A stretch of 64,000 nucleotides of DNA from Candidatus Latescibacterota bacterium. GTDB taxonomy: Bacteria > Latescibacterota > UBA2968 > GCA-2709665. Of the stretch, positions 7,997 to 22,661 are shown in pieces. The position numbers and the translations under genes are program-made. How positions within the stretch are numbered: position 1 is the stretch's first letter; each line of letters begins with the position of its first letter. The stretch is from NCBI GenBank assembly GCA_965219455.1, contig OZ244744.1:5568001-5632000 (forward strand). The letters are read 5' to 3'. Under the pieces are notes generated by a model. That model was not told the DNA's origin and made no database searches. It saw only the letters and a list, made by a program, of their open reading frames with translations.

Positions 7997-10231
7997 CTAC
8001 TGCTTTTCGATCGTCCGGGCAACACGGAATCCGAGGTCTTTATAGCGGCTATTGGACCCCAACCTCAGGCGCTCCGCCGAGCGAAGGCTTCCTGGTTCGA
8101 CGTGACAAGAACCGCCACGAAAGACGCGCATCTCGCAGTTACCAGATTCCCACGCAGAACCGTCCGCAGGGGCGCCCGTATAGCTGTCGTTCCAGCAGTC
8201 TTGAACCCACTCCCATACGTTTCCGTACACGTCATACAGACCCCACGCATTGGCCGAAAAGGAACCCGCAGGCGCCGTCTTTTCATCGTCCCATCGACTG
8301 CCGCAGCCATCGCAATTCGCGCGGTTGTGCCCAATCTCATTCCCCCAGTTATACCTCGTCGTCGTTCCCGCACGCGCCACGTACTCCCACTCCGATTCGC
8401 TCAGCAAGCGATACCTTTCTCCCGTCCTCTGTGACAACCACCGTACGTACGACTGCACGTGCCCCCAATTCACGTGCATCACCGGGCGATTACCGCGGCC
8501 CCAGCCTTCATCATCCGGTCGATATTCCGCGCAACCACCGGCATTCGCGCATGCGTCCCACTCGGCAAACGTGACTTCATTTACACCCACTGCGAACCGA
8601 TAACCGAACACCACGCGATGCCGTGGACTCTCGTCATCGTCACGTCCCGACTCCCCATCCGGAGACCCCATCAAGAACGAGCCCGACGGTACCACCACCA
8701 TCTCCGGACATTCTGCGCAGTCCCTGAATTTCCTGCCGACTCGCCGCCGTTCCTTGCGCAGCCTCTCCGCCTCCTCCGCTGCCAGCCGCGTCTTGTCCGC
8801 TTTGCGCGCCTCCGACAGCCGATCTAACAAGCTCGATAACACCGGCGCATCGGCCCACACACCCCGGATCTGGTATACGTATTCATCAGCCTTATCAAAC
8901 TCCTTCTTCTTTAGCGATTTGGCAAACTTCGTCACATAGCGGCCAATTACGCTGTCCAGACCGGCACTCGCTTCTCGGTGACCCGGCGCCAGGGCCAATA
9001 CCGCATGGTATTTCTCCCAGGCATTGTTGCCTGCCGGACTCGTCAGCCGGTCCCGCGCCAGGTCTTCGCCCGCGCCTGACAATAGCTCGAAGACCCTCGC
9101 TTCACGTTCACGATCGGGTTCGTAGATGTATTTGTAATAGCTATAGGCGCCAGCCATTACAAGACAAGACAGGCACACAATCCCGACAATCTTCCTATGC
9201 ATTCCCTTCCGGCGAGCTTCCCGCTGCTTGCCGCCACCCTCACCCTCCGCAGGTTTACAAACCTCGTCTCCGATCCGGTCGCTTTGCCGGTGCTCCACAC
9301 CATTCCCGGTCTCCTCCGGCTCAACCGGCGATTTCCTCTCGCTGTCCGGCGTCTTTCCGGAAAGCGCGGCGCGCCAGGCGGCCACGCTCTGCGGGCGGTC
9401 CCCCTCATCCACCTTCAACGCCCAATCTATCGCCGCCAGAAATCCTGCGCTTGCCTGGCCCACGCATCGCTCGGCCACCGGCGTCAATGGATCGTTCCGC
9501 ACCCTGTCCGACGCATCGTCCGGGACGCGACCGGTCAACGCGTGGTAGCACACGGCGCCCAGCGCGTAAACGTCCGTCCAGGGTCCCTGGTCGCCGCGAC
9601 TGGAATACTGCTCGATGGGCGCGTAGCCCGGCGTGATGATCGACGTGACCGAGCGGCTGCGCGACCCGATCGCCTGACGCGCCGCGCCGAAGTCCAGCAG
9701 CACCGGCAACGTGTCTTCGGCACGGATGATGATATTTCCCGGTTTGACGTCACGGTGCAGAAAGTCAGCCCCGTGCACCAGCTCCAGACCGTCCAGGATC
9801 GGATACAGGATCGCCCTGAGTTCACCCTCCTTTAAAGTGTGTTTGCGTGCCAGGTACGCCGAAAGGGTCTCCCCCTCGGCGTATTCCATCACGATATACG
9901 CCGTGCCGTGCGCCTCGAAAAACCGATACACTTTAACAATGTTGCGATGGTCGAATCTGGCAACGACGCGCGCCTCATCCAGGAATCGTTCCAGGCCCCA
10001 CGCGAAGTCACCCCGAAACTGGCTCGCTTTCGGGACCACGCTGTTATCGCCCGTGCGCGCGGCGATATCGTCCGGGAGATATTCCTTGACCGCAACCCCT
10101 TTGTCCAGGTTGTGGTCAAAACCCAGATACGTCATCCCGAAACCGCCGAAACCGAGAACCCGCACCAGTTCGTATTCCTGCAGCCGATACCCCTGGGGCA
10201 GGGCGTTCAAGGGGTGTTGCGATTCGTTCAT
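7997..10231 (-). CDS. Ser/Thr kinase - TM - stalk - FGE-sulfatase/CLec domain (K2)
   Basis: Same kinase and FGE motifs as K1; RGGSW is changed to RGGSC. Confidence 0.95.
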   Translation of the reverse strand: MNESQHPLNALPQGYRLQEYELVRVLGFGGFGMTYLGFDHNLDKGVAVKEYLPDDIAARTGDNSVVPKASQFRGDFAWGLERFLDEARVVARFDHRNIVKVYRFFEAHGTAYIVMEYAEGETLSAYLARKHTLKEGELRAILYPILDGLELVHGADFLHRDVKPGNIIIRAEDTLPVLLDFGAARQAIGSRSRSVTSIITPGYAPIEQYSSRGDQGPWTDVYALGAVCYHALTGRVPDDASDRVRNDPLTPVAERCVGQASAGFLAAIDWALKVDEGDRPQSVAAWRAALSGKTPDSERKSPVEPEETGNGVEHRQSDRIGDEVCKPAEGEGGGKQREARRKGMHRKIVGIVCLSCLVMAGAYSYYKYIYEPDREREARVFELLSGAGEDLARDRLTSPAGNNAWEKYHAVLALAPGHREASAGLDSVIGRYVTKFAKSLKKKEFDKADEYVYQIRGVWADAPVLSSLLDRLSEARKADKTRLAAEEAERLRKERRRVGRKFRDCAECPEMVVVPSGSFLMGSPDGESGRDDDESPRHRVVFGYRFAVGVNEVTFAEWDACANAGGCAEYRPDDEGWGRGNRPVMHVNWGHVQSYVRWLSQRTGERYRLLSESEWEYVARAGTTTRYNWGNEIGHNRANCDGCGSRWDDEKTAPAGSFSANAWGLYDVYGNVWEWVQDCWNDSYTGAPADGSAWESGNCEMRVFRGGSCHVEPGSLRSAERLRLGSNSRYKDLGFRVARTIEKQ

Positions 10232-10445: not shown

Positions 10446-13178
10446 TCAAGGTTTGAGAGTCCGCGCAACTCGAAAGCCCCTTACCTGGCTCCGGCTTTCG
10501 GCGGTAACCCAAACGCGATCTGCCGACCGCAGAGAAATCGGTTTAGTGTCCCACGCGCCACCTCTCAACACACGCTTAGTGCAGTCGCCACGTTCCGATG
10601 GCGAACCGTCAGAAGGTGAGCGAAAATAACTGTCTTTCCAACAGTCCCGCACCCACTCCCATACGTTGCCGTGTATGTCGTGAAGACCCCACGCGTTGGC
10701 AGAGAACGACCCCACTGGCGCCGTCTTTTTTTTGTCCCACCGACTGCCACATCCATGGCAATTTGCACGACTGTGGCCGACCGTGTTCCCCCAACTATAT
10801 GCGGTAACAGAACCCGCTCTTGCAACATACTCCCATTCCGACTCACTCAACAAACGATATGACTCGCCCGTCACGTCCGTCAACCACGCAACATAGGACT
10901 GTGCGTCATCCCAACTCACGTTTATCACTGGTCGATTCCCCCGCCCCCAACCCATATCACCCGGAGCATATCCCATACACCGTCCGGATACGGCGCACAC
11001 ATCCCACTCACGAAACGTGACCTCACTAATACCCACTGCAAATCTGTAATCTATCCTCACGCGATGCCGAGGGCCCTCATCGTCATCGCGACCAGCCTCA
11101 CTTCGCGGTGAACCCATACTAAACGAACCCGATGGCACGACGATCATTTTGGGACAATAGCCGCAATCCTTAAAAGTCCTTCCAATTTCCCTGTTACGGG
11201 CTACCGACAAACGACCCTTCAAATCGGACACCACTGCCGCGTCAACGTTAACCGAACCCAACGAATCCACGTACCCGCTCGCAGCGTCGAGATCCTCTGC
11301 TCGCAACGCCGACTCAAACTTCCTACTATACAACTCGATTTGAGCCAGACGAAGCCGCTCCGCTTCCTCAACAGCTTGTCGTCTCGCTCGTTCGGCGGCC
11401 AAATCCTTGCGACTCGTTTCGGCCTCACGGGCACGCCTGAGTCTGTCATTAAATCGTGACAACTCCTGAATATTCGCGCCGACCACTCGTAGCGAATCCA
11501 TATACCAACTTGCTACATCGAAATCCTTCTCATCCAACGCCGACTCAAACTTCCTACTATACGACTCGATTTGAGCCAGACGACGAATCTCAGCTTCCTT
11601 GGCGGCTTGCTGTCTCGCTCGTTCGGCGTACTGCTCCTTTCGACTCGCTTGCGCTTTGCGGGCCGCTATTATCCGACTTTCCAAACCCGTCAACACCGGT
11701 GCATCTGACCAGACTTCGCGAATTCGGGATACAAACCCATCCGCCGTTTGGAAGTCCTTCCGGCGCAAAGCAGACTCGAACATTGTCGTATAACGCCCGA
11801 TGATATTATCAACACCGGCAATCGCTAGTTTGTGGCCGGGCTCTATCTTCAATACTTGCTGATACTTCTGCCACGCATTCGCGTCGGGAGGGCTCGTCAG
11901 ACGGTTACTCGCCAAGTCCTCTTCAGCGGCCGACAACAACACGGATATTTTGTCCAATCGTTGACGCGCCACTTCCGCCTCAGCCAGTTGTCTTGTTCTA
12001 TCAGCGTCATGTGTGCCGCGACGCTGTTCCGGGAGATGGATGTACTCATAATAATAGTATCCGCCTCCCATCAGAAGAGCACACACGCACGCGAGGGCAG
12101 CGAACACCCTACCCTTGCGCCGTCTCGGACGTCGTAGTCGGATATCCGTGTCCTGATGCACTGCGGAAGCATGGACTTTATGGCCGTCCTGTTGTTGCGA
12201 TGGAGGAACGGTAGGTGTTCCCGTCGACTGGACAGTCACGCTTGTTCGTTCCTCTCGAGGCTTTGCGACCAGCGGCGAAACCGCCATGTTGTCTCGCGTT
12301 TCTCCAGATAATGCAGTGCGCCATCCGGCCACGCTTTGTGGGCGGTCCGCCTCATCCACCTTCAACGCCCAATCTATCGCCGCAAGAAAGCCGGCGTCTG
12401 CTTGCCCCGCACATCGCTCAGCCACGGGAATCAGTGGGTCATTGCGCACCCGGTCTGTCGCATCTTCCGGTACCAGACCAGTCAACGCATGGTAACATAC
12501 CCCTCCCAATGCGTAAATGTCCGTCCAGGGGCCCTGGTCGCCACGACTCGAATACTGCTCGATAGGGGCATAACCCGGTGTGATGATTGAGGTCACCGAT
12601 CGACTTCGTGCGCCAATCTCCTGGCGCGCCGCTCCGAAGTCAAGCAAGACAGGTGAATTGTCCTCGTCACGGATGATTATGTTGGCCGGCTTGATGTCCC
12701 GGTGCAGAAATTCAGCCCCATGGACCACCTCCAGGCCATCCAGAATCGGATATAGAATCGATTGCAGTTCCGCTTCTCTCAGCCTCCATTTACGTTTGAA
12801 ATACGCCGATAGAGTCTCCCCCTCCGCGTATTCCATTACGATATACGCCGTGCCATGTGCCTCAAAGAAGCGATACACTTTAATTACGTGCCGATGGTCG
12901 AAGCGGGCTAATATGCGCGCTTCATCCAGGAAACGATCGAGACCCCACTCGAAATCACCGCGAAACTGGCTAGCTTTTGCGGCAACGCTGTTATCGCCCG
13001 TGCGCGCGGCGATATCGTCGGGGAGAAATTCCTTGACCGCGACCCCCTTGTCCAGGTTGTGGTCAAAACCCAGATACGTCATCCCGAATCCTCCGAAGCC
13101 CAGTACTCTCACCAATTCGTATTCCTGCAGGCGATGCCCCTGTGGCAGGGCGTTTAGGGGGTGTTGCTCATCGTTCAT
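10446..13178 (-). CDS. Ser/Thr kinase - TM - stalk - FGE-sulfatase/CLec domain (K3)
   Basis: Start MNDEQHPLNAL set by homology to the paralogs; HRDIKPAN, DFG; FGE C-terminus. Confidence 0.93.
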   Translation of the reverse strand: MNDEQHPLNALPQGHRLQEYELVRVLGFGGFGMTYLGFDHNLDKGVAVKEFLPDDIAARTGDNSVAAKASQFRGDFEWGLDRFLDEARILARFDHRHVIKVYRFFEAHGTAYIVMEYAEGETLSAYFKRKWRLREAELQSILYPILDGLEVVHGAEFLHRDIKPANIIIRDEDNSPVLLDFGAARQEIGARSRSVTSIITPGYAPIEQYSSRGDQGPWTDIYALGGVCYHALTGLVPEDATDRVRNDPLIPVAERCAGQADAGFLAAIDWALKVDEADRPQSVAGWRTALSGETRDNMAVSPLVAKPREERTSVTVQSTGTPTVPPSQQQDGHKVHASAVHQDTDIRLRRPRRRKGRVFAALACVCALLMGGGYYYYEYIHLPEQRRGTHDADRTRQLAEAEVARQRLDKISVLLSAAEEDLASNRLTSPPDANAWQKYQQVLKIEPGHKLAIAGVDNIIGRYTTMFESALRRKDFQTADGFVSRIREVWSDAPVLTGLESRIIAARKAQASRKEQYAERARQQAAKEAEIRRLAQIESYSRKFESALDEKDFDVASWYMDSLRVVGANIQELSRFNDRLRRAREAETSRKDLAAERARRQAVEEAERLRLAQIELYSRKFESALRAEDLDAASGYVDSLGSVNVDAAVVSDLKGRLSVARNREIGRTFKDCGYCPKMIVVPSGSFSMGSPRSEAGRDDDEGPRHRVRIDYRFAVGISEVTFREWDVCAVSGRCMGYAPGDMGWGRGNRPVINVSWDDAQSYVAWLTDVTGESYRLLSESEWEYVARAGSVTAYSWGNTVGHSRANCHGCGSRWDKKKTAPVGSFSANAWGLHDIHGNVWEWVRDCWKDSYFRSPSDGSPSERGDCTKRVLRGGAWDTKPISLRSADRVWVTAESRSQVRGFRVARTLKP

Positions 13179-13293
13179 AGCGCTTTCCTCAGAATTTATC
13201 CTACTGTGTTTCCAACTATACGCGGACCGATACGTGCCTACCGGTTCTACACAGGCAGGCGTCCACGCAGCCAGTCTATCGTTGTGACAGGGA

Positions 13294-14034
13294 TTATTCT
13301 CTCGATCTCTCTTCCACGTCCTGCCAGTCGAACGCGTCGCCGCAGAGGGGCACGAAACGGAGAACCGTCGAACCAATATGAATGTGGCTATGCGCGGGTA
13401 GTTCAGTTGGAACCAGTACGGGCTGATCCCCCAGGTAGGTCAGGTTCTTGCCCCCGCCGTGCTGCACGAAAAACTTCCTGCCGCGGGGATCGTAGGTCAC
13501 AACGGCGTGACCGCCGCGGGAAATCTGATTATCGCCGAAGTCCAGGCTGACGCGGGCGGTTCTCCCGCGCCCGATCGGATTGGAACCATTACCCAGCTGA
13601 AGGGCCTTTCCTTTTCCCGGCCCCTCGACGATCGCCAGCCACCCCACAACCGGGTCATTCATGCCGTCGGCTTCCACGGCGGGCTCCCGCCTGTCACCCG
13701 GCCTGGGGCCCGCGCCCACGTTGATAACGGTGCGTTCCTCCTCTTTTCCCGATCCGGGCGACGCGACGCGCTCCTTCTTACGTCGTCCAACGGGGAAGTC
13801 GGTTGCCGATTCCGTTTGTCCCATCGGTTTTGTGGGCTCATCCAGACGACCCGCACCGGCGACGTCACCTCCCCGCTCCGGTACAGGTTGCCGCCCCGGC
13901 TTTGTGGGTTCATCCGAACCTCCCCCGGTTTGACGGCCACCCTGAGGCGCCGGCGGCAACGGTTTCTCTTTGAAGTCTGTCGGCTTGCTTTTTTCTTCGA
14001 TGATATTGCCATCGGCATCACGGTAAACGGGCAT
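13294..14034 (-). CDS. FHA domain protein with a disordered, Thr-containing N-terminus
   Basis: VVGWLAIVEGPGKG...IGRG...DNQISRGGHA; GGAGG RBS before MPVYRD. Confidence 0.88.
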   Translation of the reverse strand: MPVYRDADGNIIEEKSKPTDFKEKPLPPAPQGGRQTGGGSDEPTKPGRQPVPERGGDVAGAGRLDEPTKPMGQTESATDFPVGRRKKERVASPGSGKEEERTVINVGAGPRPGDRREPAVEADGMNDPVVGWLAIVEGPGKGKALQLGNGSNPIGRGRTARVSLDFGDNQISRGGHAVVTYDPRGRKFFVQHGGGKNLTYLGDQPVLVPTELPAHSHIHIGSTVLRFVPLCGDAFDWQDVEERSRE

Positions 14035-14237
14035 AACAAAGTCCTCCAAGAGCGGTGAGAGGTAAGAGGTGAGAAGTGAGATGGAGGTCCCGCATCTCTG
14101 GTCTCCCTTAGTCAGGGTCTCGTAATTCTCCTTCCGATACGCGGAGAGAGGCGGGAGTCTTGTGTTTTGTAGTAAGACCTTTAAGCAAAATACATTCGCC
14201 CAGACTCGTGCTGTTTCCTTCGGGTGAGGGGTTGGCA

Positions 14238-14372
14238 TCCCCCCACCGCATCAGCCGTCGCCGGTCCCTTCGACACGCTCAGGGCAGCGCCTTCGACAAT
14301 CCTTCGACAGGCTCAGGACAGGGCTCAGGGAACCGGCTCGGCTTCTGCGACTCCCCCTCAAGGGGGGAGTGA
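14238..14372. repeat. composite intergenic repeat (CCCCACCGCATCAGCC...CTTCGACAxGCTCAGG...CTCCCCCTCAAGGGGG)
   Basis: Second copy at ~19917-20031; CTTCGACAxGCTCAGG also at ~2570 and ~59584. Confidence 0.75.
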
Positions 14373-14526
14373 TGGCGAGTTCAGGACGCGATGCTCCGTG
14401 CGAAGAAAGAGCGATACAACGGAGTACGCGCGGGTCGTCTTGCCTCTCCCGTCCTGTGCCGTGGGTGAGAAGGTTTCGGCGAGGCGGCGGGGTGGTCCTC
14501 TCCCGTCTAACGTCTCCCCGATTCTG

Positions 14527-15300
14527 CTATTTTTCATACAGCCGGTTAATCAGATTATCCAGACAGTACTGCCCCGACCGGTTCAGTGCCATTTCCTCTT
14601 TCTGCTGCACGACATGCAGGGCAAACACGAGCAACGCCGATTGGACGAGGGCAAGAAGGGTCGTGTAGAACGCCACGCCCAGCCGCCCGGTGATCTCCGG
14701 CAGCAGATTCGGATCCTGTGGATTTTCATTGCTTCCGGCATAATCCAGCGCCAGGGCGATCCCCACAACCGTGCCGATAAAACCCAGCGTGGGGACCAGC
14801 CAGACGAGGTACCGCAGCATGTTGTATTTGAGTTCAAGCTCGTGTTGAAATAATTCAAGGGAAGAATTCATGAGGGAATTGGCCTGGTTGACGGACCCGC
14901 TGCCCTGAAACTGCAGGATGCAGCGCATGATCAGACGCTGCAGAAAGTACGTCGGCTCCCCTTCCGCCGGCCGCAACCGGTTATAGAGGGGGCCCAGGTC
15001 CTGTGATCGCAGCATGCTCGAATCGTCTTCCGGGAGATATCGCATCGTGAGTTGCGTCGTCTCCATGTTGGATTGGTTGAACCGCCGCCACAACTCCCCG
15101 CAACCGATGAAAAACATAATCCACATGGTATTCTGGATGGTAAACGGATAGGTATTCGCCTGGCGATCGAGCAGGAAATCGCCCGCCATAGAATCGCCGC
15201 TTGTGAAAAGGAAGCTCATTACCGCAATGAAAACAACGCCGATGACCACGCTCACGCCGAATGCGATCAGCCGTAGATTCGTCTCGGAATTCCGTTCCAT
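14527..15300 (-). CDS. MotA/TolQ/ExbB proton channel family protein
   Basis: VPTLGFIGTVVGI and LGVAFYTTLLAL motifs; ATG at 15300 lies 1 nt after the upstream stop. Confidence 0.9.
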   Translation of the reverse strand: MERNSETNLRLIAFGVSVVIGVVFIAVMSFLFTSGDSMAGDFLLDRQANTYPFTIQNTMWIMFFIGCGELWRRFNQSNMETTQLTMRYLPEDDSSMLRSQDLGPLYNRLRPAEGEPTYFLQRLIMRCILQFQGSGSVNQANSLMNSSLELFQHELELKYNMLRYLVWLVPTLGFIGTVVGIALALDYAGSNENPQDPNLLPEITGRLGVAFYTTLLALVQSALLVFALHVVQQKEEMALNRSGQYCLDNLINRLYEK

Positions 15301-15301
15301 A

Positions 15302-15688
15302 TCAGCCCTCGTCTGGAATGATTTCACCTGTGTCCGGATTGCGGCGAACGTTGCCCTCCGGAAGGGCGTCCGCCGGCTTTGGGCCTGCAGCCGGGCGCCC
15401 CGGGTCAGGATCGCCCCTCGATTCGAGTCCCTGCAGCAGTCCGAGCGCGCTTGTCTGGTGACGACCGAGGAGAATCGCATCCGCGGGGGAAACGAATTCC
15501 TGCCTGATGCGTATCCACTCGCCGTTCCGCGCCACGTAACTGCCGTTCCTGCTCGCACAATCGGTCAGATAGTACGACCCCTTCGCGGTCACGACCAACT
15601 CGGCGTGGACACGTGAGACCGTGGCGTCGTCTACTTGAATTTCCACGTCCGTACCGCGACCGATTCTATACGTCGAAAAGCCGGACAT
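15302..15688 (-). CDS. small FHA domain protein
   Basis: IGRG..D...DATVSRVHAEL...D..SRNGSYV. Confidence 0.92.
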   Translation of the reverse strand: MSGFSTYRIGRGTDVEIQVDDATVSRVHAELVVTAKGSYYLTDCASRNGSYVARNGEWIRIRQEFVSPADAILLGRHQTSALGLLQGLESRGDPDPGRPAAGPKPADALPEGNVRRNPDTGEIIPDEG

Positions 15689-15699
15689 TGCGGGATCCT

Positions 15700-16527
15700 C
15701 TACCGGTGTGTGACGCGCATATTGCCTTCGGCATCCACGGTGATCGTCGCAACCAGCACCTTGTCACCTACTCTTCTGAGCCGTATCTGCCGCAAAGGCG
15801 TCTGGCCGTCCGGCGTCAAAACACCACCCCGTACAAGCACACTTTCTTCGGTGGCGGAGTTGAAGTATTTGTAGTAGACCTGGTAGGTCCCTGCCTCTGC
15901 CAACGGATGCAGCCAGATTTCATTGCCTGGGCCCCTTGTATTGTCCTCTTCCAGGTTTGCCCGAGAACCGGAAAACGAACGGTTCCCGTAATAGAACTCC
16001 CGCCCAGCGGGATCGAGTACGTGCAGGTCGATATCGTCACCTGTATTCCAACTCATGATGATCAAGAGGAATTTCTTCCGCGCCTGCGCCTGACACGACG
16101 ACAGGTCCGCCTCGAGTTCCCGGTTACGGCTCTCGCAAGCCCCCAGGGCGTTACGCGGTACGGAGCCCTGCTGCTGCGCCTCACACGCCGCAAGCTGTCC
16201 TTCAAGCTGCCGGTTAAGTTCTTCGCAGGCGGCCAGGGCATCCGGGGATACCGACGCCTGCTGTTGTTCTTCACACGCTGCCAGGGCCGCCTGGACCTGC
16301 TGGTTGCGGCTTTCGCACGCGTTCAGTTCCCCTCTCGCTGCCTGTAACTCATTCTGGACGCTCTCAAGGCGCGCCATGACTTCCGCCACCCGCTCGGCTG
16401 CATCGCCGGTGTTCGGGAAGTACGGAAACAGGACGAAGGCAATGAGAATAAATGCTCCCATCGCCGAGGCGAACAGGTCAAGCGCCGACATACTGAAGAT
16501 ATTGAGTTCCCTGCTGCGGGATTTCAT
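15700..16527 (-). CDS. TM (Asp-containing) - Cys-rich coiled coil - YfaP/DUF2135-like domain protein
   Basis: SALDLFASAMGAFIL TM; repeated LxACE; SWNTGDDIDLHVLDP...EDNTRGPGNE. Confidence 0.75.
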   Translation of the reverse strand: MKSRSRELNIFSMSALDLFASAMGAFILIAFVLFPYFPNTGDAAERVAEVMARLESVQNELQAARGELNACESRNQQVQAALAACEEQQQASVSPDALAACEELNRQLEGQLAACEAQQQGSVPRNALGACESRNRELEADLSSCQAQARKKFLLIIMSWNTGDDIDLHVLDPAGREFYYGNRSFSGSRANLEEDNTRGPGNEIWLHPLAEAGTYQVYYKYFNSATEESVLVRGGVLTPDGQTPLRQIRLRRVGDKVLVATITVDAEGNMRVTHR

Positions 16528-16542
16528 GGCGCGGCACTCCTC

Positions 16543-18075
16543 TCAGGATTTGGAAACCATCAACTCCACGCCACCGGGCGCAACGGTGGCGCCATAATCC
16601 AGACGCTCCGGACGAAAGGGAGGCAGGCGACGGCGATTCAGAAACGTCCCGTTGCTCGAGTTCAGATCTTCGATACGAAATCCATTGTCAACAGCGCGGA
16701 TTCTCACGTGACGCCTGGATACATTGTCATCGTGGATGACTTCATCCACAAGATCCGGATGCCTGCCCAGCGAAAGTCCCAGCCGTTGTCCCTCTAATTT
16801 TTCGGGCGATAGCGCGATGCGAACGCGGTTGCCCCCGCCGTCGAACCCGGCCAGCACCAGACCGTGTCCCGTGCGCTGCCCTTCCGGTGTTCCTTCAACC
16901 GCCCCGTCGTGAGTTCTTCTCCTGATCGGCCGGCTCAACTGTTCCGCGACGTGGATGATCTGCTGCCGTGGTTTCTTCAGGCCAAGCAGCAGGGCCGCCA
17001 GGGTCAAGGCGCCAAGCAATGTCCCACCGATGAGAAACCGCCGGCTCGCCTCTTCCGCCTGGAGGCGCGTCGTTTCTATTTCCCGGCTTGCTTCTTCCGC
17101 CTGTCGCGCGGCCTCACCCGCCTGTTGTTTCGCTTCCTCCGCCTCCTGGCGCGTGCGTCCTGCTTCCCGGGTCGCTTCATCCGCGCGCCGCGTCGCTTCT
17201 TCGGCCTTACGCCGCGTCCTTGCTGTTTCCCGGGTTGCTTCTTCCGCCTTTCGCCGGGCCTCGCCCGCCTGTCGTTTCGCTTCTTCCGCCTCACGGCGGG
17301 CATTTTCCGCCTCCTCGGATCCTCCGGCTCCACCCGCCGGCAAACACGGACTGGTTTCCGGTGGTTGGAAAGAGATTCGGTGATCGCGCAGCAGCCTTGC
17401 CAATTCCTCAATGTGGGAAGACCAGTATATTCCCGCCGCGTGGGGCACACGGGTGACTCCCTCGGACCGGCTTTCGATCACAACCAGAGACGCCTGCGTA
17501 TTCACGCCGATGACCCTCCCGCAGTCATCCACGAGGGGACCGCCGCTGTTGCCGGGGTTCGTAGGCGCGTTGTGTTGAATGATCCTGAATCTCTGCGTGT
17601 GCCACGCCCCGGAGAATATCCTGCCGATAACGCCATCCTGCACAGTTGCATCATCGGCGAGACCCTCTCTGTCGGCGCCTCCCGGATAGCCGATTGCCCA
17701 TACTTTCTGTCCTGTCTTTAATTCCGCGAGCGAAAGCTGCATCGGTGGAAGATTGATCCCACGCGACTGAATGATTGCCAGATCGCGTTCAGAGGACACG
17801 GCAACCACCCTGGCGTCGTACAGGGTATTGGACTTTGCCGGTCGTACTCTGATCCGGCCGCCGCCGTCAATAACATGGACGTTTGTGGCGATGTAACCGC
17901 GTTCGTTGATCACAAATCCTGTACCGGTACTGGTCCCCCGACGCGTCTCGTTCAGAATCCGCACAACACTCTTCTTGAGTGCATCCAGGTCCGGACTGGC
18001 AACGGCATGATGCCCGTGAAAGAGCAACGCCAGAAGGAGATAGACAGGACTTATCGATCTGATCATGTTCTGCAT
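16543..18075 (-). CDS. trypsin-like serine protease - coiled coil - TM - FHA
   Basis: Signal peptide; intact triad TNVH, RDLA, GNSGGP; C-terminal LGR...VSRRH...DLNSSNGT. Confidence 0.93.
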   Translation of the reverse strand: MQNMIRSISPVYLLLALLFHGHHAVASPDLDALKKSVVRILNETRRGTSTGTGFVINERGYIATNVHVIDGGGRIRVRPAKSNTLYDARVVAVSSERDLAIIQSRGINLPPMQLSLAELKTGQKVWAIGYPGGADREGLADDATVQDGVIGRIFSGAWHTQRFRIIQHNAPTNPGNSGGPLVDDCGRVIGVNTQASLVVIESRSEGVTRVPHAAGIYWSSHIEELARLLRDHRISFQPPETSPCLPAGGAGGSEEAENARREAEEAKRQAGEARRKAEEATRETARTRRKAEEATRRADEATREAGRTRQEAEEAKQQAGEAARQAEEASREIETTRLQAEEASRRFLIGGTLLGALTLAALLLGLKKPRQQIIHVAEQLSRPIRRRTHDGAVEGTPEGQRTGHGLVLAGFDGGGNRVRIALSPEKLEGQRLGLSLGRHPDLVDEVIHDDNVSRRHVRIRAVDNGFRIEDLNSSNGTFLNRRRLPPFRPERLDYGATVAPGGVELMVSKS

Positions 18076-18078
18076 ATT

Positions 18079-19656
18079 TCACTCCGGCATCAGACGCACC
18101 CGAAAAACGACGGGGCCCATCCCGAGTTCATCATTGTTGTCCAGGACAACATGTTCACCGGGAGATATCAGACGCCCATTGATCGTCGTACCGTTCGTGG
18201 AGTTCAGATCCTCCGCGTAGAGGCGCCCGCCGGTATAGATGAGCCTGACGTGTTCGCGGGAGACGGCTTCGTGGTCGATTATGAATTCCGAGTTGGCGGG
18301 ACTTCTCCCCAGCGCGACTCCGGACGGCAGCGCCAGCGCCGGAATGCTCAACACAAACGGCCGCCCGGTGTCGTCCTGGCCCTCCAGTAAACACCTGAAC
18401 GGCGCGGGGTGAGGCGCGCGCGCCGCGGCCTGCCGCGCGGCTTCGGCCTCCCGTTCCGCCTCGCTGGCACGGGATGAACTGCTCTGCACCTGCGCCTTCT
18501 TCGAGCGGGCGAACAGGAACCAGCCCAGAAGCAACAGAATGACGAAGGCAGCCCCTGCAACTACGGTCCATCGAAACCGTTCGGACGCCTCTTCCTGGCC
18601 CTTCCTGTTGACCTCTGCCAGGCTATCCCGAGTTGCTTCGAGTCGATCTGCCGCCGCCCTTCTTATGGAATCCGCACGCGCGCGGGCCAGGGAATCCGCC
18701 CTTGCGTGCGCCCGTGTCAAACTGTCTTCCCGCGCATGTTTCAAGGAATCGCCCCGGGCCTGCGCGCGTTCGAGGCGTCCTCTTTCTGCCCTCAGGCGTT
18801 CCTCCGCCGCCGCCTTAATGGAGTCCTCCCGCGCCTGATTCAGGGAATCGGTCTTTGCCCGTTCCCGTCTCAGACTGTCTTCACGTGCCTGTGTCAGGGA
18901 ATCTGTTCGTGCCTGCGCCCGTCTCAAGCTGTCTTCCCTCGCTTCCGCCCGTTCAATGGCAGTCAGGCACGCGTCGTCAACCACGGTATGGGCGATTTCC
19001 CGTTCCCTGAGCGCGGCAATGACGTCGCCGCTGCGCAGGGCGAAGACGGTTCCCCTGGGATCCTTGACGTTCCGGAACGGCCAGCGCCCGCTATCCGGGT
19101 CCGGCAGGTTGATTCCGATTACCTTCCCACATTCATTAAACACGGGCATACCGAACGCCCTGGACTTCACGATGGCGTTGTGCTGCAGCAGATGTACGAG
19201 GGAATCGGCGGCGGTTCTGCCGAGTATGTCCTGGTGGGCGCCGATGGTACCGCGCGCAATCCGGACACTGTCACCAGCGGTGAATGTGAGGGTCTCCACC
19301 ACCCGTCCCACGTCCGACCCCTGCACAGACAGACTCAGGGGCGGGGATCCCAGGCCCTGCACGCGCAACAGAGCGAGGTTCATCTCGCGGCTGGCAAACA
19401 CCTCCTGCGCCACGATCTCCGCACCCGTCTTCAGGGACAATACCGTTACCCGGTCCGCATTCGCCAGGAGATGCGCGTTGGTCAGCACGTCCCCGTTTCC
19501 ATTCACGACAAAGCCGCTCCCTTCCGCCGCGACCTTGTTATATCTGTACGCACGCACCCGGACAACGCTCTCGGATACGACGTCGACGTCGGTCTGCCCG
19601 AACGCCGGGCCGGCCAGTGCGAACACAGCGATTTGCACAAGCAACGAGACACGCAT
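18079..19656 (-). CDS. catalytically inactive trypsin-like domain - repeat stalk - TM - FHA
   Basis: TNAH is present, but the Asp site reads MNLALL and the Ser site reads AFGMP; (R/E/A)DSL repeats; FHA VSREH...STNGT; AGGAG RBS. Confidence 0.85.
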   Translation of the reverse strand: MRVSLLVQIAVFALAGPAFGQTDVDVVSESVVRVRAYRYNKVAAEGSGFVVNGNGDVLTNAHLLANADRVTVLSLKTGAEIVAQEVFASREMNLALLRVQGLGSPPLSLSVQGSDVGRVVETLTFTAGDSVRIARGTIGAHQDILGRTAADSLVHLLQHNAIVKSRAFGMPVFNECGKVIGINLPDPDSGRWPFRNVKDPRGTVFALRSGDVIAALREREIAHTVVDDACLTAIERAEAREDSLRRAQARTDSLTQAREDSLRRERAKTDSLNQAREDSIKAAAEERLRAERGRLERAQARGDSLKHAREDSLTRAHARADSLARARADSIRRAAADRLEATRDSLAEVNRKGQEEASERFRWTVVAGAAFVILLLLGWFLFARSKKAQVQSSSSRASEAEREAEAARQAAARAPHPAPFRCLLEGQDDTGRPFVLSIPALALPSGVALGRSPANSEFIIDHEAVSREHVRLIYTGGRLYAEDLNSTNGTTINGRLISPGEHVVLDNNDELGMGPVVFRVRLMPE

Positions 19657-19916
19657 AAACAGACTCTCCTGAAGAAAGTGATAGGTATCACGTGTACGGA
19701 CGGGACGGACGATTTTGAGGTTTTGTCCTGTCCATATATCCCAATTTTGCGCATTCAAATCTTGCGGGCGAGGACGCCCGCGTTCCCAGGGGGTACCCTG
19801 AGGGCGAGTGCGTCCGCCCGAGTTTGTTGACGATAGCTTCAGCCCCAGTTGCAGCGGAAGCCGCGGAAGATTCTTCGACTCCGCTCAGAATGACAGGGCG
19901 ACGAATGACGTTGACG

Positions 19917-20031
19917 TCCCCCCACCGCATCAGCCTTTGCCTGCCCTTCGACAAGCTCAGGGGACCGGCTCGGCTTCTGCCTGCCTGTCCTGCGGACGCA
20001 GGCAGGCGACTCCCCCTCAAAGGGGGAGCGA
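19917..20031. repeat. composite intergenic repeat, copy 2
   Basis: Matches 14238-14372, with an inserted GCCTGCCTG...GCAGGCAGGC palindrome. Confidence 0.7.
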
Positions 20032-20161
20032 TGCGGTGTGAAGGCGCTTTCTCAATGGGTTCGCCAACAGCGCAATCGACGCGCGGGTTATTTGGTTATC
20101 GGGTTCCGTTGTTTACACCCGAGCGAGACACGCAGTCAGCCGGTCGATCCCGGAAAAATCG

Positions 20162-20212
20162 CCAGGGGGGCGCAGCCCCCCTGGACCCCCGTAAGGCGTA
20201 AAGAGGTAAAGA
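20162..20212 (-). promoter_or_regulatory. putative DGR target-recognition signal: TCTTTACCTCTTTAC tract plus 10-bp GC hairpin
   Basis: CCAGGGGGGC-TGC-GCCCCCCTGG (20162-20184), 29 nt after the K4 stop codon; could also act as a terminator. Confidence 0.7.
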
Positions 20213-20213
20213 C

Positions 20214-20345
20214 TTAAGGGTTAAGCGTCCGGGCAATACGGAAACCGTTGTCGTAGTACCGTTCGCCGGAGGAGTCCCTGTCGCGGTCCGCGGCGCGGAG
20301 GTACCTTGGGTTGCTGTCCCACGAGCCGCCGCGCAACACGCGACG
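20214..20345 (-). other. putative DGR variable repeat (VR)
   Basis: Between TCG TGG and GGT TTC CGT, 11 codons are AAC or one change from AAC, all with a third-position C. Confidence 0.78.
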
Positions 20346-22661
20346 CGCGCAATCACCGCGCTCCCACACCGATCCGTCAGAAGGGGCGCCCGTATAGCTG
20401 TTGTTCCTGCAATCTCCCACCCACTCCCATACGTTCCCGTGCACGTCGTACATTCCCCACGCGTTCGCCGAAAACGAACCCACAGGCGCCGTCTTCTCAT
20501 TGTCCCACCGACTACCGCACCCGTTGCAATTCGCTCTGTTGTGACCGATCTCATTCCCCCAGTTGTACCTCGTCGTCGTTCCCGCTCGCGCCACGTACTC
20601 CCACTCCGACTCGCTCAGCAGACGATACCTTCCTCCCGTCCTTTCCGACAACCACCGAACGTACAACTGCGCGTCATCCCAACTCACCCCCATCACCGGG
20701 CGGTTCCCACGGCCCCAGCCGCTGTCATTCGGACGATGTCCTCCACAACCCCCAGCAGATACGCACGCGTCCCACTGTGCAAACGTCACTTCATACACCC
20801 CAACCGCGAACCGATAGCCGATCCGCACGCGATGACGCGGACCCTCGTTCTCATAACGCCCCGTCTCCCCGCGCGGAGACCCCATCATGAACGATCCCGA
20901 CGGCACCACCACCATCTCCGGACATTCTGCACAGTCCCTGAATTTTCCGCCTACCGTCCTGCGCAGCCGCTGGGTTTCTCGCGCTGCCGACAGACGGCCT
21001 TCCTTCCCGGACAACACGCCCGCAGATGCATTGACAGAACGCAGCGATTCCACGTACCTGCCCGCGGCATCGAAATCATTCCGACCGAGCGATTCCTCGA
21101 ACTTCCGCTTATATTCCGCGATTTTAGCCTGACGAAGACGTTCTGCCTCCTGTGCGGCCAGCCGCGCCTTCTGCGCCCCCCGCGCCTCCGAAAGGCGACG
21201 CTCCAATCCCGGCAACACCGGCGCGTCGGCCCACACCCCGCGGATCCGCGAGACGTACCCTCCCGCCTTTTCGAAATTCCTGCCTCGCAACGCCGTCCCG
21301 AACTTCATCACGTAACGAGCTACAATGGTGTCCAGGCCCGCCGTCGCCTTTCGATGACCCGGCAACAGTTCCAACACCGCCTGATATTTCTCCCACGCAT
21401 TCGCGCCCGCGGGGCTTGTCAGTCGATCCCGCTCCAGGTCTTCGGCAGCGCCGCGCAACAATTCGGATATTTTTTCATCTCGCTGACGCTTCACCACATC
21501 CTCTGCCGCGGTTTGTCTCGCTATCACGGTTTCCTGCGCGCGGCGACGCTGGTCGGGGACATAGATATATTTATAGTAAGCGTAGCACCCTCCGATCAGA
21601 AGAGCCAACACGCACACGACCACGGCGGCGAACACCGGTCCTTTGCGCTTTTTGGGAGTCGCCGGACGGTCATCGGTGGCCCGATGGCCTGGCGCCGCGG
21701 CCGGCGCTCCCGCCCCTCTGACGCCCCCGCTCGACCGTTCCCCAGTACGTGCAGGCGCCGGCGAAGGCACGTCGTCCGACGTCGCTCCGGATAGCGCAGC
21801 ACGCCAGGCGGCCACGCTCTGCGGCCGGTCCGCCTTATCGACCTTGATCGCCCAATCGATCGCCGCAAGAAGGTCGGCGCCCGCCCGGCCCGCGCATCTC
21901 TCGGACACCGGAATCACCGCATCACCTATCACTCGTTCCGTGGCATCGGCCGGCGCCTCACCGGTCAACGCGCGATAGCACAGAGCGCCCAACGCGTACA
22001 GGTCCGTCCAGGGGCCCTGGTCGCCCTGGGTCGAATACTGCTCGATGGGCGCGTAGCCCGGCGTGATGATCGACGTGACCGATTTGCTCCGCGCGCCGAT
22101 CGCCTGCCGCGCCGCGCCGAAGTCCAGCAACACCGGCGAATTGTCCTCGTCACGGATGATGATATTGCCCGGTTTGATGTCGCGGTGCAGGAAGTCGGCC
22201 CCATGCACTACCTCGAGGCCGTCCAGGATCGGATTCAGGATGGCCTTGAGTTCTTCTTCTTTCAACGTCCATTTACGATCGAGATACGCCGAGAGGGTCT
22301 CCCCCTCGGCGTATTCCATCACGATATACGCCGTGCCGTGCGCCTCGAAGAAACGATGGACTTTGATGATGTGCCGATGGTCGAAGCGGGCCAGCGTGCG
22401 CGCCTCATCCAGGAATCTTTCCAGGCCCCACTCGAAGTCACCCCGGAACTGGCTCGCCTTCGGGGCCACGCTGTTATCGGCCGTGCGCGCAGCGATGTCG
22501 TCCGGGAGGTACTCCTTCACGGCCACGCCCTTGTCCAGGTTATGGTCAAAGCCCAAATACGTCATCCCGAAGCCGCCGAAACCCAGCACCCTCACCAGTT
22601 CGTACTCCTGGAGGCGGTGCCCCTGCGGCAGGGCGTTCAGAGGATGTTCCGCGTCGTTCAT
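20214..22661 (-). CDS. Ser/Thr kinase - TM - stalk - FGE-sulfatase/CLec domain (K4), putative DGR target
   Basis: Kinase motifs HRDIKPGN, DFG, GYAPIEQ; TM; FGE ending RVLRGGSWDSNPRYLRAADRDRDSSGERYYDNGFRIAR. Confidence 0.95.
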   Translation of the reverse strand: MNDAEHPLNALPQGHRLQEYELVRVLGFGGFGMTYLGFDHNLDKGVAVKEYLPDDIAARTADNSVAPKASQFRGDFEWGLERFLDEARTLARFDHRHIIKVHRFFEAHGTAYIVMEYAEGETLSAYLDRKWTLKEEELKAILNPILDGLEVVHGADFLHRDIKPGNIIIRDEDNSPVLLDFGAARQAIGARSKSVTSIITPGYAPIEQYSTQGDQGPWTDLYALGALCYRALTGEAPADATERVIGDAVIPVSERCAGRAGADLLAAIDWAIKVDKADRPQSVAAWRAALSGATSDDVPSPAPARTGERSSGGVRGAGAPAAAPGHRATDDRPATPKKRKGPVFAAVVVCVLALLIGGCYAYYKYIYVPDQRRRAQETVIARQTAAEDVVKRQRDEKISELLRGAAEDLERDRLTSPAGANAWEKYQAVLELLPGHRKATAGLDTIVARYVMKFGTALRGRNFEKAGGYVSRIRGVWADAPVLPGLERRLSEARGAQKARLAAQEAERLRQAKIAEYKRKFEESLGRNDFDAAGRYVESLRSVNASAGVLSGKEGRLSAARETQRLRRTVGGKFRDCAECPEMVVVPSGSFMMGSPRGETGRYENEGPRHRVRIGYRFAVGVYEVTFAQWDACVSAGGCGGHRPNDSGWGRGNRPVMGVSWDDAQLYVRWLSERTGGRYRLLSESEWEYVARAGTTTRYNWGNEIGHNRANCNGCGSRWDNEKTAPVGSFSANAWGMYDVHGNVWEWVGDCRNNSYTGAPSDGSVWERGDCARRVLRGGSWDSNPRYLRAADRDRDSSGERYYDNGFRIARTLNP

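Follow-up and report, generated by a model that had tools for sequence, protein, structure and literature searches.

Targets that join a kinase to an FGE-type C-type lectin domain have been described for DGRs, together with dispersed families of paralogues around one DGR (PMC7517822, published in 2020), and the combination of FGE-sulfatase and kinase has been listed as target class 'b12' (Wu et al., 2018, PMC5758913). As far as the accessible part of the latter survey goes, DGR-type FGE domains such as that of TvpA are regarded as binding modules and not as enzymes. For Thiohalocapsa PB-PSB1, the available text reports that a full match at the non-adenine positions was the test of which template repeat (TR) serves a variable repeat (VR), and that the DGR loci include incomplete or orphan ones (Dore et al., 2024, PMC10907252). 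Kinase-lectin DGR targets as well as remote targets are already published, and the gene array around the gene K4 adds a further case. The window, i.e., the whole stretch of DNA that was analyzed, comprises 64,000 nucleotides. We propose, with a probability of roughly 0.6, that the last ~110 bases of the K4 gene were written by a DGR that is located 29 kb away, and that the template version used was another than that of today.

The open reading frame and the translation of K4 (window 20214-22661, minus strand; 815 aa) describe a receptor-type Ser/Thr kinase that is also a DGR variable protein, with the layout kinase, membrane helix, and FGE/C-type-lectin domain. The protein kinase domain (residues 20-240, 21942..22604, minus strand; Pfam Pkinase, 1.1e-36) contains VAVKE (46-50), HRDIKPGN (159-166), and DFG (180-182), and the catalytic Lys, the HRD loop, and the DFG motif of Hanks-type Ser/Thr kinases are all present. 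A single hydrophobic segment, FAAVVVCVLALLIGGCYAYY (residues 344-363, 21573..21632, minus strand), which is preceded by a KKRK cluster, is predicted to span the membrane as a helix, with the N-terminus on the inner side; the kinase domain would be cytoplasmic and the FGE-sulfatase/C-type-lectin-fold domain (residues 579-811, 20229..20927, minus strand; Pfam, 3.3e-53) extracytoplasmic. The closest solved structures to the FGE domain in a sequence search are PvdO (5hha, 3.6e-55) and several formylglycine-generating enzymes, and the variable protein 2y3c of Treponema denticola matches it at 4.9e-15. The Pfam matches and these solved relatives bear out the target described in the first-pass annotation, namely a Ser/Thr kinase of the membrane that carries a lectin domain of the FGE type. 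The VR is situated inside the FGE domain, and the block of codons quoted in the first-pass annotation, from RGGSW (777-781) to GFRIARTL (806-813), stops 2 residues short of the stop codon TAA (20214-20216, minus strand).

A complete DGR cassette was found just outside the window, with the gene order Avd, RT, TR. The Avd ORF (G000 5560111-5560509) overlaps the start of the RT ORF and matches NF033474 with 100.8 bits (cut-off 80) and bAvd (PF22296) at 4.9e-17, while a sequence search of the PDB with Avd gave no match. The DGR-type RT (G000 5559045-5560226) matches RVT_1 with 55-57 bits (56.9 and 55.2). Its best solved relative is 8ub7, which we take to be the Bordetella phage bRT, at 4.9e-42; a group II intron RT reaches 5.2e-20. 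IGNLTSQ and YVDD are both within the aligned part, and I/LGxxxSQ is the signature of DGR RTs. NCBIfam does not have a DGR-RT model, and the best match there was a group II RT with 124.9 bits, under the cut-off of 300. The TR follows directly on the RT stop codon and runs from 5559045 downwards (G000 5558931-5559043 aligned to the VR), 29,179 bases upstream of K4. A DGR-type RT, an Avd adjoining it, and a TR/VR pair that differs exclusively at TR adenines, that of the paralogue Kc, are all present and characterize the locus as a DGR. The genome of 5.84 Mb contains a single RT of this kind, a single Avd, and a single TR; a blastn search of the whole genome with the TR (word size 7, E up to 10) revealed no other TR-like copy that could serve as a second template, and tblastn searches of the genome with Avd and RT revealed no further copy or remnant of a second cassette.

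These results agree with the first-pass annotation, which had seen neither an RT nor a template near K4 and had postulated a DGR elsewhere in the genome: none of the 16 RVT_1 matches of the genome lies within G000 5568001-5632000, and the TR lies beside the DGR-type RT and Avd. Its term 'remote' stands here for a distance of 29 kb, which places the target in the same gene array and not at a distant site of the chromosome. The template peptide had been predicted from the VR, and 25 of its 26 specified residues are found in the translation of the TR, W-N-N-K-P-R-N-L-R-S-A-N-R-N-R-N-T-T-G-K-R-N-N-N-N-G-F-R, the third predicted N being a K.

The K4 VR (20230..20342, minus strand) consists of 113 bases that are homologous to the TR at G000 5558931-5559043, and the TR matches K4 in the blastn search of the genome with 82.4% identity over 119 nt (E 5.6e-28). 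The adenine-derived variable codons are located within 20248-20318. The 29 codons that had been read earlier occupy window 20240-20326 on the minus strand exactly as quoted, including the 11 codons that are AAC or differ from it by one substitution, all with a C at the third position (GAC, AGC, AAC, TAC, GAC, GAC, GAC, TAC, TAC, GAC, AAC). Over the 113 aligned bases, mismatches are found at 13 of the 31 TR adenines and at 7 of the 82 other bases, a significant adenine bias (Fisher p = 1.1e-4). Eleven of the 13 changes at adenine sites affect codon position 1, one position 2, and one position 3; by comparison, the third codon position is affected by 6 of the 7 non-adenine changes. Window sites at which non-adenine bases of K4 depart from the present TR include 20298, 20294, 20292, 20274, 20244, and 20241, and the latter two adjoin the 3' boundary. 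The observation of the first-pass annotation was confirmed, and its interpretation was right with regard to the DGR and the target architecture; however, its expectation that mismatches stay at template adenines did not hold for K4. As there are seven non-adenine mismatches within the VR, two of them close to the 3' end, where homing from the present TR would replace them, the K4 VR of today most probably stems from another template than the present TR.

K4 is one of eight kinase-FGE paralogues (K4, Ka-Kg) within 49 kb, which are interleaved with genes for PP2C, FHA-trypsin, and MotA-like proteins, and repeated segmental duplication is visible in the array. At least four of the eight (K4, Kb, Kc, Kd) have VRs that match the TR: the blastn search of the genome with the TR gave four VR matches of 121, 117, 121, and 119 nt at 82-84%, and, apart from the TR itself and the array paralogues, all matches were 34 nt or less. 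Over the 113 nt, Kc, the target adjacent to the cassette, has mismatches at 19 of 31 adenines and at none of the 82 non-adenines, Kb at 16 of 31 and 2 of 82, and Kd at 14 of 31 and 6 of 82. The Kc ORF is broken by an in-frame TAG, so a perfect match to the TR is not equivalent to a working gene. Ka has a TR match of 124 nt at 72.6% (blastn) and a VR that was graded as decayed. Decayed VRs are also found in Kf (7997..10231, minus strand; 744 aa, kinase and FGE; 62-nt TR match at 76% with 2 gaps) and Kg (10446..13376, minus strand; 976 aa, kinase and FGE; 58-nt TR match at 74%), and Ke (2770..5460, minus strand; 896 aa, kinase and FGE) has no TR-matching VR, but a match of 25 nt only. The array offers a graded series for the gain and loss of targets, from the perfect Kc over Kb (2 mismatches) and Kd/K4 (6 to 7) to the decayed Ka, Kf, Kg, and Ke.

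A group of genes on the same strand follows downstream of K4 (13294..19758, minus strand). It encodes two proteins with trypsin-like peptidase and FHA domains (18079-19758 and 16543-18075), a 275-aa protein without an assigned family (15700-16527), a MotA/ExbB-like protein (14527-15558), and an FHA protein (13294-14238), all on the minus strand. The products might be readers of phospho-threonine and effectors of the K4 kinase. A comparable group of ORFs, whose N-terminal residues are identical or nearly so, is repeated at G000 5550920-5556316.

The comparison of K4 with Kd, which has the VR closest to that of K4, bears on the template. Six of the seven non-adenine mismatches of K4 are common to Kd, and 86 of 87 non-adenine VR positions are identical in the two genes. 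They differ at 16 positions, 15 of which are on TR adenines (binomial p = 4.5e-8). The six shared sites together with this distribution of the differences make a common template variant that is now absent, designated TR-prime, the most likely explanation. TR-prime would differ from the present TR at six mostly synonymous positions and would since have been lost; the VRs of K4 and Kd would both have been written from it, and Kc and Kb, unlike K4, would have been rewritten from the present TR since its origin. The TRs of two RT relatives (L035 and L097) carry precisely this signature of six sites, and that of L044 carries five of the six; their occurrence there indicates that the K4/Kd states are natural template states. 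The RT relatives are 47-78% identical, and 78 loci of such relatives contain 60 TR-like matches that are 73-94% identical to the TR of this genome, in MAGs titled as many different phyla. Seven hand-picked TRs were scored against K4 over the whole repeat. None of them surpasses the local TR as a source of the K4/Kd sequence; the best, that of L035, has 9 and 8 non-adenine mismatches. A template with the TR-prime sequence was found neither in the genome nor among the foreign TRs examined. We infer that TR-prime existed, and K4 is probably a genuine DGR variable protein with a VR from this lost template, dormant or rarely served at present.

Several other explanations have to be weighed against a VR written from TR-prime. 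K4 might be an ordinary non-adjacent target on which the present TR still acts, with mismatches that result from non-adenine errors of the RT or from rare homing. The cis features of K4 are intact and of the same kind as those of Kc, whose VR agrees with the TR at all 82 non-adenines, and DGRs have been reported to act in trans on distant targets (PMC10907252; PMC5758913, in the parts accessible). The portion of the survey by Wu et al. (2018, PMC5758913) that bears on this question describes differences other than A-to-N in 86 of 372 DGRs, with up to 11 per target, finds them to be commoner in non-phage DGR lineages, accepts such targets, and suggests RT infidelity in some lineages. By this standard, K4 might still be an active target of the usual kind. 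However, independent RT errors would not result in six of seven mismatches that are identical in Kd, and any homing event would overwrite both 20244 and 20241, which adjoin the 3' boundary. The seven VRs of the sister element in G026 each have no more than 3 non-adenine mismatches (1-3 of 82, next to 18-19 of 34 at adenines). The K4 VR was, in addition, unchanged in the contigs X1 and X4 of two studies, which is a weak argument because contigs drop rare variants. We regard continued service by the present TR as rather unlikely.

Alternatively, K4 might never have been written in place, but might have received its VR and the downstream flank as a copy from a diversified paralogue, after which only the other copy was diversified further. 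The repeated segmental duplication in the array is in line with this possibility, as is the gradient of similarity between K4 and Kd: the identity reaches 92% over the 100 nt that follow the VR (versus 74-80% to Kc) and 99% at the non-adenines of the VR, in contrast to 75% over the 300 nt that precede it and 72% for the whole proteins. The downstream identity implies that a duplicated or gene-converted 3' segment could account for part of the common backbone. Nevertheless, at least one copy must have been rewritten with adenine specificity from a template with the K4/Kd backbone, so TR-prime is not dispensed with, and the target module of K4 is complete, with nothing that would set it apart from a copy written in place. 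An origin of the K4 VR by copying is thus improbable. Lastly, the 3' end of K4 could be the normal conserved C-terminus of an FGE-sulfatase domain that underwent ordinary paralogue divergence, without any DGR. The RGGSW...GFR frame is general in the FGE-sulfatase family, and the Pfam match of K4 reaches the end of the profile. But among the 20 FGE-sulfatase matches of the genome long TR matches are confined to array paralogues (blastn), the mismatches to the TR and, even more so, the K4-Kd differences concentrate on TR adenines, and the changes are at codon positions 1 and 2, whereas ordinary divergence would favor position 3. The blastn results and the adenine and codon position counts contradict this explanation, and we consider it extremely improbable.

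The region downstream of the VR has features that are in agreement with K4 as a DGR target. The 3' boundary of information transfer is GCCCG|G (20224..20229, minus strand), followed by five further shared bases, ACGCT. Base 20229 is a G in all four local VRs and the corresponding base is a G in all seven G026 VRs, while both TRs have a C. A tandem TTTAC-type motif, TCTTTACCTCTTTAC (20198..20212, minus strand), begins 2 bases past the stop codon, and this TTTACCTC-like tandem is located between the end of the TR homology and the hairpin. In an alignment of 29 VR 3' flanks, the motif columns C30, T32, T37, and T40 are invariant, and T29, C38, T41, A42, C43, T45, and C46 are conserved to at least 90%. 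The claim of conservation is based on these columns; a simple regular expression for the tandem motif matched 12 of 35. A related motif is present after six of the seven VRs of G026.

The hairpin (20162..20184, minus strand) is perfect and G+C-rich, with 10 bp, of which 9 are G-C pairs, and a 3-nt loop, and it lies 39 bases past the TR homology. A T5 run at 20154-20158 follows, and the hairpin was flagged as terminator-like; it is a candidate for a DGR target-recognition hairpin or cruciform as well as for a terminator. Of 32 distinct VR flanks from RT relatives, 22 have a perfect hairpin of 8 to 11 bp in the corresponding position; such a hairpin accompanies three of the four VRs of this genome and none of the seven VRs of G026. 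Detection in the individual sequences indicated that the stem structure is retained although its bases differ from element to element. With the MAFFT alignment as input, RNAalifold found 5 pairs only and no compensatory change, a poor result that is explained by hairpins that are out of register in the alignment. The motif and the hairpin that had been noted after the stop codon are conserved together with VRs in this DGR lineage. As K4 keeps the whole conserved 3' module, it looks target-competent, and the module is a candidate target-recognition signal of this cellular DGR lineage.

According to established DGR biology, from which the mechanism is taken, the cassette (avd, RT, and the TR from the RT stop codon onwards) would produce a TR-containing RNA, and the RT-Avd complex would copy it to cDNA with misreading of template adenines. 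The cDNA would replace the VR as far as the fixed 3' boundary GCCCG|G. As a result, some 13 codons of the AAC type in the ligand-binding tip would be recoded, while the scaffold would remain untouched.

The population data comprised short, metagenome-like Logan contigs with 384-824 records per run, most of which were under 95% alike, and paralogues and foreign FGE genes map to the same stretch. Among the variant places listed from these paralogue-confounded contigs, five lie in the K4 VR, all at TR adenines, and four of the five have the letter of a paralogue or of the TR. Contigs that skip from 20236/20247 to 20312/20319 were not assignable to K4. The reference VR of K4 was found unchanged in contigs of two studies (X1, 19991-20345; X4, 20222-20372; 0 other letters each). 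An exact 32-nt pattern specific for K4 had no match in metagenome contigs and none in genome contigs. A protein-based scan for K4 alleles in metagenome contigs retrieved 80 loci, the best of which is 63% identical, in the lectin domain only, and a DNA search for K4 in 40 relatives yielded nothing above 76% outside this genome.

On a more speculative reading, templates turn over in the array: K4 and Kd would keep the imprint of the vanished TR-prime, and Kc and Kb would carry that of the present TR. It is conceivable, though at this stage doubtful, that the cassette moves horizontally and adopts and abandons arrays of kinase-lectin genes via a portable 3' label; the VRs of the genomes with RT relatives have the boundary, the tandem TTTACCTC-like motif, and the hairpin in common, which might represent such a label. 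If this were true, VRs like that of K4, which are orphaned and yet addressable, would be normal intermediates. A template that was predicted from a VR alone and was then found validates the signature for finding remote DGR targets. Furthermore, an array of membrane receptor kinases with hypervariable ligand-binding tips is added to the signaling proteins that are diversified by DGRs.

K4 resembles the system of PMC7517822 and class b12 in the combination of kinase and FGE lectin, in the placement of the VR at the very end of the gene, on the 3' side, and in dispersed paralogues, some of which are far from the cassette and yet homologous to the TR. The host of K4 is, to judge by the relatives of its RT and in contrast to that system, not a cyanobacterium. 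Further differences, as far as the accessible parts of both sources describe their targets, are the predicted membrane helix that separates the kinase from the lectin domain, the arrangement of eight paralogues in 49 kb amid PP2C, FHA-trypsin, and MotA-like genes, and the non-adenine signature that points to another template. TvpA of T. denticola (2y3c) has the FGE-type CLec fold like the K4 domain, with a similarity (4.9e-15) at the level of the fold only, and one RT/TR serves several non-adjacent targets there, namely seven (PMC5758913, in the part available), as is proposed here. However, TvpA is a lipoprotein without a kinase, and the nearest solved relative of K4 is PvdO (5hha, 3.6e-55). 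In Thiohalocapsa PB-PSB1 targets are diversified by a TR/RT that is encoded elsewhere, some VRs are without a perfect template in the genome, and targets contain Pkinase and FGE domains with trypsin-like peptidases nearby, as is seen or proposed for K4; but, according to the available text, that genome has several DGRs, compared to a single RT, Avd, and TR here, and its diversification was measured in natural populations (Dore et al., 2024, PMC10907252). Like K4, the Bordetella phage BPP-1 has a G+C-rich inverted repeat downstream of the VR and beyond the TR homology, with a stem whose structure, but not its sequence, is kept in both systems, and the part of the report consulted describes 4-nt GRNA loops and distances of 4-34 bp from the VR for phage hairpins of this type (Guo et al., 2011, PMC3240598). 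The loops of the lineage analyzed here have 3-4 nt without a GRNA consensus, the K4 hairpin is 39 bp out with the tandem TTTACCTC-like motif in between, and, again unlike BPP-1, a T run follows the K4 hairpin and the G026 VRs (0/7) do without such a hairpin.

The open reading frame of the receptor Ser/Thr kinase K4 (window 20214-22661, minus strand) encodes 815 residues and ends with a TAA stop codon at window 20214-20216. Pfam assigns residues 20-240 to a kinase domain (1.1e-36) and residues 579-811 to an FGE-sulfatase domain (3.3e-53), and the kinase motifs VAVKE, HRDIKPGN and DFG are all present. A single hydrophobic stretch is found at residues 344-363, just after a KKRK cluster, and we infer from the sequence that the kinase is cytoplasmic and the lectin-type domain outward-facing. 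In a sequence comparison with solved structures the lectin domain is nearest to PvdO (5hha, 3.6e-55), and it is also similar to formylglycine-generating enzymes and to the variable protein 2y3c of Treponema denticola (4.9e-15). The 29 codons that the first-pass annotation had quoted from the end of the gene (TCG TGG GAC AGC AAC ... GGT TTC CGT) are indeed located on the minus strand at window 20240-20326, and the eleven codons described as AAC or one step away from it all end in C. The elements reported after the stop codon are likewise present on this strand, namely the motif TCTTTACCTCTTTAC at window 20198-20212 and a perfect 10-bp hairpin with a 3-nt loop at window 20162-20184, which is followed by a T5 run.

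The annotation had proposed that a diversity-generating retroelement (DGR) elsewhere in the genome acts on K4, and such a cassette was found. The window corresponds to positions 5568001-5632000 of the 5.84-Mb genome (G000). Comparison of the K4 3' end with this whole genome retrieved seven related stretches, which share its strand and lie within 46 kb, among them one non-coding match of 119 nt at G000 5558925-5559043. This A-rich template repeat (TR) starts directly after the stop codon of a reverse transcriptase (RT) gene (G000 5559045-5560226, minus strand) and lies 29,179 bases from the variable repeat (VR) of K4. The array RT gives a weak RVT_1 match (56.9 bits, G000 5559279-5559917). Its best solved relative is 8ub7 (4.9e-42, versus 5.2e-20 for a group II intron RT), which we take to be the DGR RT of a Bordetella phage, and the alignment takes in IGNLTSQ and YVDD; the motif IGxxxSQ is a signature of DGR RTs. 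An Avd gene for a protein of 132 aa (G000 5560111-5560509, minus strand) is situated upstream of the RT gene and overlaps its start; its product matches the equivalog NF033474 at 100.8 bits (cut-off 80) as well as bAvd. On the minus strand, the target gene Kc with its VR is thus followed by avd, RT, TR and a gene for a PP2C phosphatase. In whole-genome searches with tblastn and blastn, Avd, the DGR-type RT and the TR were each found only once in G000. The TR encodes SWNNKPRNLRSANRNRNTTGKRNNNNGFR, and 25 of the 26 residues specified in the predicted template agree with this translation.

RVT_1 has 16 matches genome-wide, 13 of which represent copies or fragments of an open reading frame, with 89-129 bits and about 26% identity to the array RT (tblastn); these stronger matches are probably of the group II intron type. 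The respective open reading frames of 458-466 aa, plus two shorter pieces, are located at G000 5548288-5549658 (plus strand) and at about 12 other places; one lies inside the kinase array, between the K4 paralogue Kb and the duplicated FHA-protease module. In DGRs, cDNA synthesis is primed by a spacer RNA region, for which the stretch downstream of the TR at G000 5558860-5558925 (GTGCAACGGAGCGTCCAGGG.CGGTCATGATGAGGT) is a candidate; this stretch is preceded by a hairpin and is nearly identical in the relative's genome G026.

A blastn search with the TR yielded four matches of 117-121 nt and 82-84% identity, in Kc, Kb, Kd and K4, one gapped match in Ka (72.6%), and short matches in Kf (62 nt), Kg (58 nt) and Ke (25 nt). 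All eight genes are kinase-FGE paralogues with 64-84% protein identity. Mismatches to the TR were counted over 113 bases, from the start of homology in K4 to the 3' boundary; the boundary base itself, which is G in all four VRs (Kc, Kb, Kd, K4) and C in the TR, lies outside this span. Kc differs at 19 of 31 adenines and at none of the 82 other bases, Kb at 16 and two, Kd at 14 and six, and K4 at 13 and seven, respectively (p = 1.1e-4 for K4). A non-coding copy beside a DGR RT and Avd had been expected and is present, but its differences from K4 are not limited to adenines. Eleven of the 13 adenine-site changes in K4 are at codon position 1, one at position 2 and one at position 3, while six of the seven others are at position 3. 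The codon set (10 AAC, one AAT, two AAA, two ACC, two AGG) would allow, by hand arithmetic, roughly 10^17 different protein sequences. Kc, which adjoins the cassette (G000 5560689-5563334, minus strand), is split by an in-frame TAG (G000 5561382-5561384) into a 649-aa kinase/linker and a 230-aa FGE-domain reading frame, the FGE part being contained in locus L003 (1554-2246). The VR of Kc nonetheless agrees perfectly with the TR at non-adenines, and Kc is therefore either a split gene, a pseudogene that was rewritten recently or the product of an error in the assembly.

Six of the seven non-adenine mismatches of K4 recur in Kd (CTG>CTC, TCG>GCC, AAT>..C, GGG>GGT, TTT>TTC). Between the two VRs there are 16 differing sites, and TR adenines account for 15 of them (p = 4.5e-8); K4 and Kd are identical at 86/87 non-adenine and 17/32 adenine positions, at 75% of the 300 nt upstream and at 92% of the 100 nt downstream. 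These sequences are most simply read as two VRs that were each written, independently, from TR-prime, a former template with the K4/Kd backbone. The present TR would later have rewritten Kc and Kb, but neither Kd nor K4, and homing from it would replace the two mismatches of K4 that adjoin the boundary (window 20244 and 20241). Outside adenines, K4 departs from TR-prime by a single change of its own (CCG>CCA) and Kd by none. This does not exceed the two changes by which Kb departs from the present TR, so there is no need to place the loss or replacement of TR-prime far back in time. The high identity downstream of the VRs allows duplication or conversion of a 3' segment as part of the history of K4 and Kd. 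The six signature states are natural ones: the TRs of two RT relatives (L035 and L097) carry all of them, and that of a third (L044) carries five. Among the TRs of RT relatives compared, none fits K4 better overall than the local TR.

At E <= 1e-20 the array RT was found in none of 14 same-genus genomes and none of seven other genomes of the family. In a second family of the order, three of 19 genomes contain it, full-length in G026 (77% identity) and as fragments in two. The sister DGR of G026 (L033 and L034, C1 4205000-4234000) has the same layout, with the TR directly after the RT gene and seven kinase-FGE VRs within about 18 kb, on both sides of the RT gene. Its TR and the local one share 87% identity, and each VR differs from the former at 18-19 of 34 adenines and 1-3 of 82 other bases. 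Active-looking targets of this lineage thus match their template almost perfectly, and K4 and Kd stand out. Further RT relatives (L035-L112) are titled Acidobacteriota, Alphaproteobacteria, Dehalococcoidia, Spirochaetia, Nitrospirales and others, and their loci contain 60 TR-like matches with 73-94% identity to the local TR, in many phyla by MAG title. Locus L111 retains only the last 28 RT residues (96% identical) and a TR-like copy.

Past the boundary, the stop codon, TCTTTACCTCTTTAC, a G run and the hairpin are common to K4, Kd and Kc; the flank of Kb differs. VR-like matches were gathered beside RT relatives at 78 loci in genome_contigs (full-length RT identity 47-78%). A perfect G+C-rich hairpin (stem 8-11, loop 3-4) is present in 23 of 32 distinct VR 3' flanks, in 22 of these placed as in K4. 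Of these flanks, 26 were aligned with K4, Kd and Kc (29 sequences, 25 with the hairpin); the six left out (two each from L047 and L086, one each from L105 and L065) comprise five that lack a hairpin and one that has it elsewhere. The alignment columns of the motif show either no variation or conservation of at least 90%. The stem sequences vary (CCAGGGGGC, CCAAGGGGGC, CCGGGGGC, CTGGGGGGC, CAAGGGGC), with two or three pair types at each of the pairs 6-8 counted from the loop, and pairing stays perfect. The K4 hairpin also scores as terminator-like, but many aligned hairpins have no T run behind them, which argues for an association of the element with the VR rather than with termination of transcription. 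The seven VRs of G026 include none with such a hairpin and six with the tandem motif, which counts against an essential role of the hairpin. The RT relatives and TR-like matches in MAGs titled as many phyla suggest that the cassette spread horizontally together with the conserved VR 3' module.

The K4 stretch was found in six sequencing runs from three studies, in every case as contigs, and four runs were compared. The reference VR is unchanged in contigs of X1 (19991-20345) and X4 (20222-20372), with no other letters in either. Among the variant places listed, five are inside the K4 VR, all at TR adenines, and four of the five letters are those of a paralogue or of the TR; the same stretch also drew contigs of paralogues and of other organisms' genes. 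No K4 allele was found in metagenome_contigs, genome_contigs or 40 relatives. A dispersed intergenic repeat of about 125 nt lies downstream of the K4 hairpin (window about 19907-20032), with copies of 78-96% identity at G000 953442-953566 and, in large number, in same-genus genomes. In each of the four runs compared, contig depth increases by a factor of 20 to 80 over 19834-20034.

Downstream of K4 (window 13294-19758), two genes for trypsin-like peptidases with FHA domains are followed by genes for a further protein, a MotA/ExbB-like protein and an FHA protein. A four-gene module (two trypsin-FHA proteins, a 254-275-aa protein and a 343-aa protein) recurs in the array, at window 13294-19758 and at G000 5550920-5556316, the second copy having been compared by open reading frames alone; the 343-aa protein is MotA/ExbB-like in the window copy. 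PP2C phosphatase genes follow the TR and Ka (G000 5557705-5558736 and 5540350-5541381, the domain assignment covering the first copy). FHA domains read phospho-threonine, and it is therefore a reasonable inference that a hypervariable sensor kinase may feed FHA-protease effectors.

Among the papers listed by a focused literature search, with supplements outside its scope, none linked DGRs to sponge, Latescibacter or threonine kinase; we do not claim that the 3' module motif or the DGR lineage is unpublished. For phage DGRs, hairpins with stems of 7-10 bp and 4-nt GRNA loops have been described at a distance of 4-34 bp from the VR (Guo et al., 2011; PMC3240598); the K4-type hairpin differs from these in its loop, its distance (39 bp) and the intervening motif. 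The K4 system as a whole is of a known kind, because kinase-FGE targets, remote paralogues and action in trans have all been published. Kinase-FGE targets form class b12 of Wu et al. (2018; PMC5758913), who report non-adjacent targets for 45 of 372 DGRs and up to 11 non-A-to-N differences per target. In cyanobacterial DGRs, Ser/Thr kinases are described as the commonest domain of variable proteins, with "remote" paralogues (Vallota-Eastman, 2020; PMC7517822). For Thiohalocapsa, DGRs that act in trans and VRs lacking a perfect template have been reported (Dore et al., 2024; PMC10907252), and the proposed path from kinase to FHA-protease would be in the spirit of the conflict-system reading put forward in that study.
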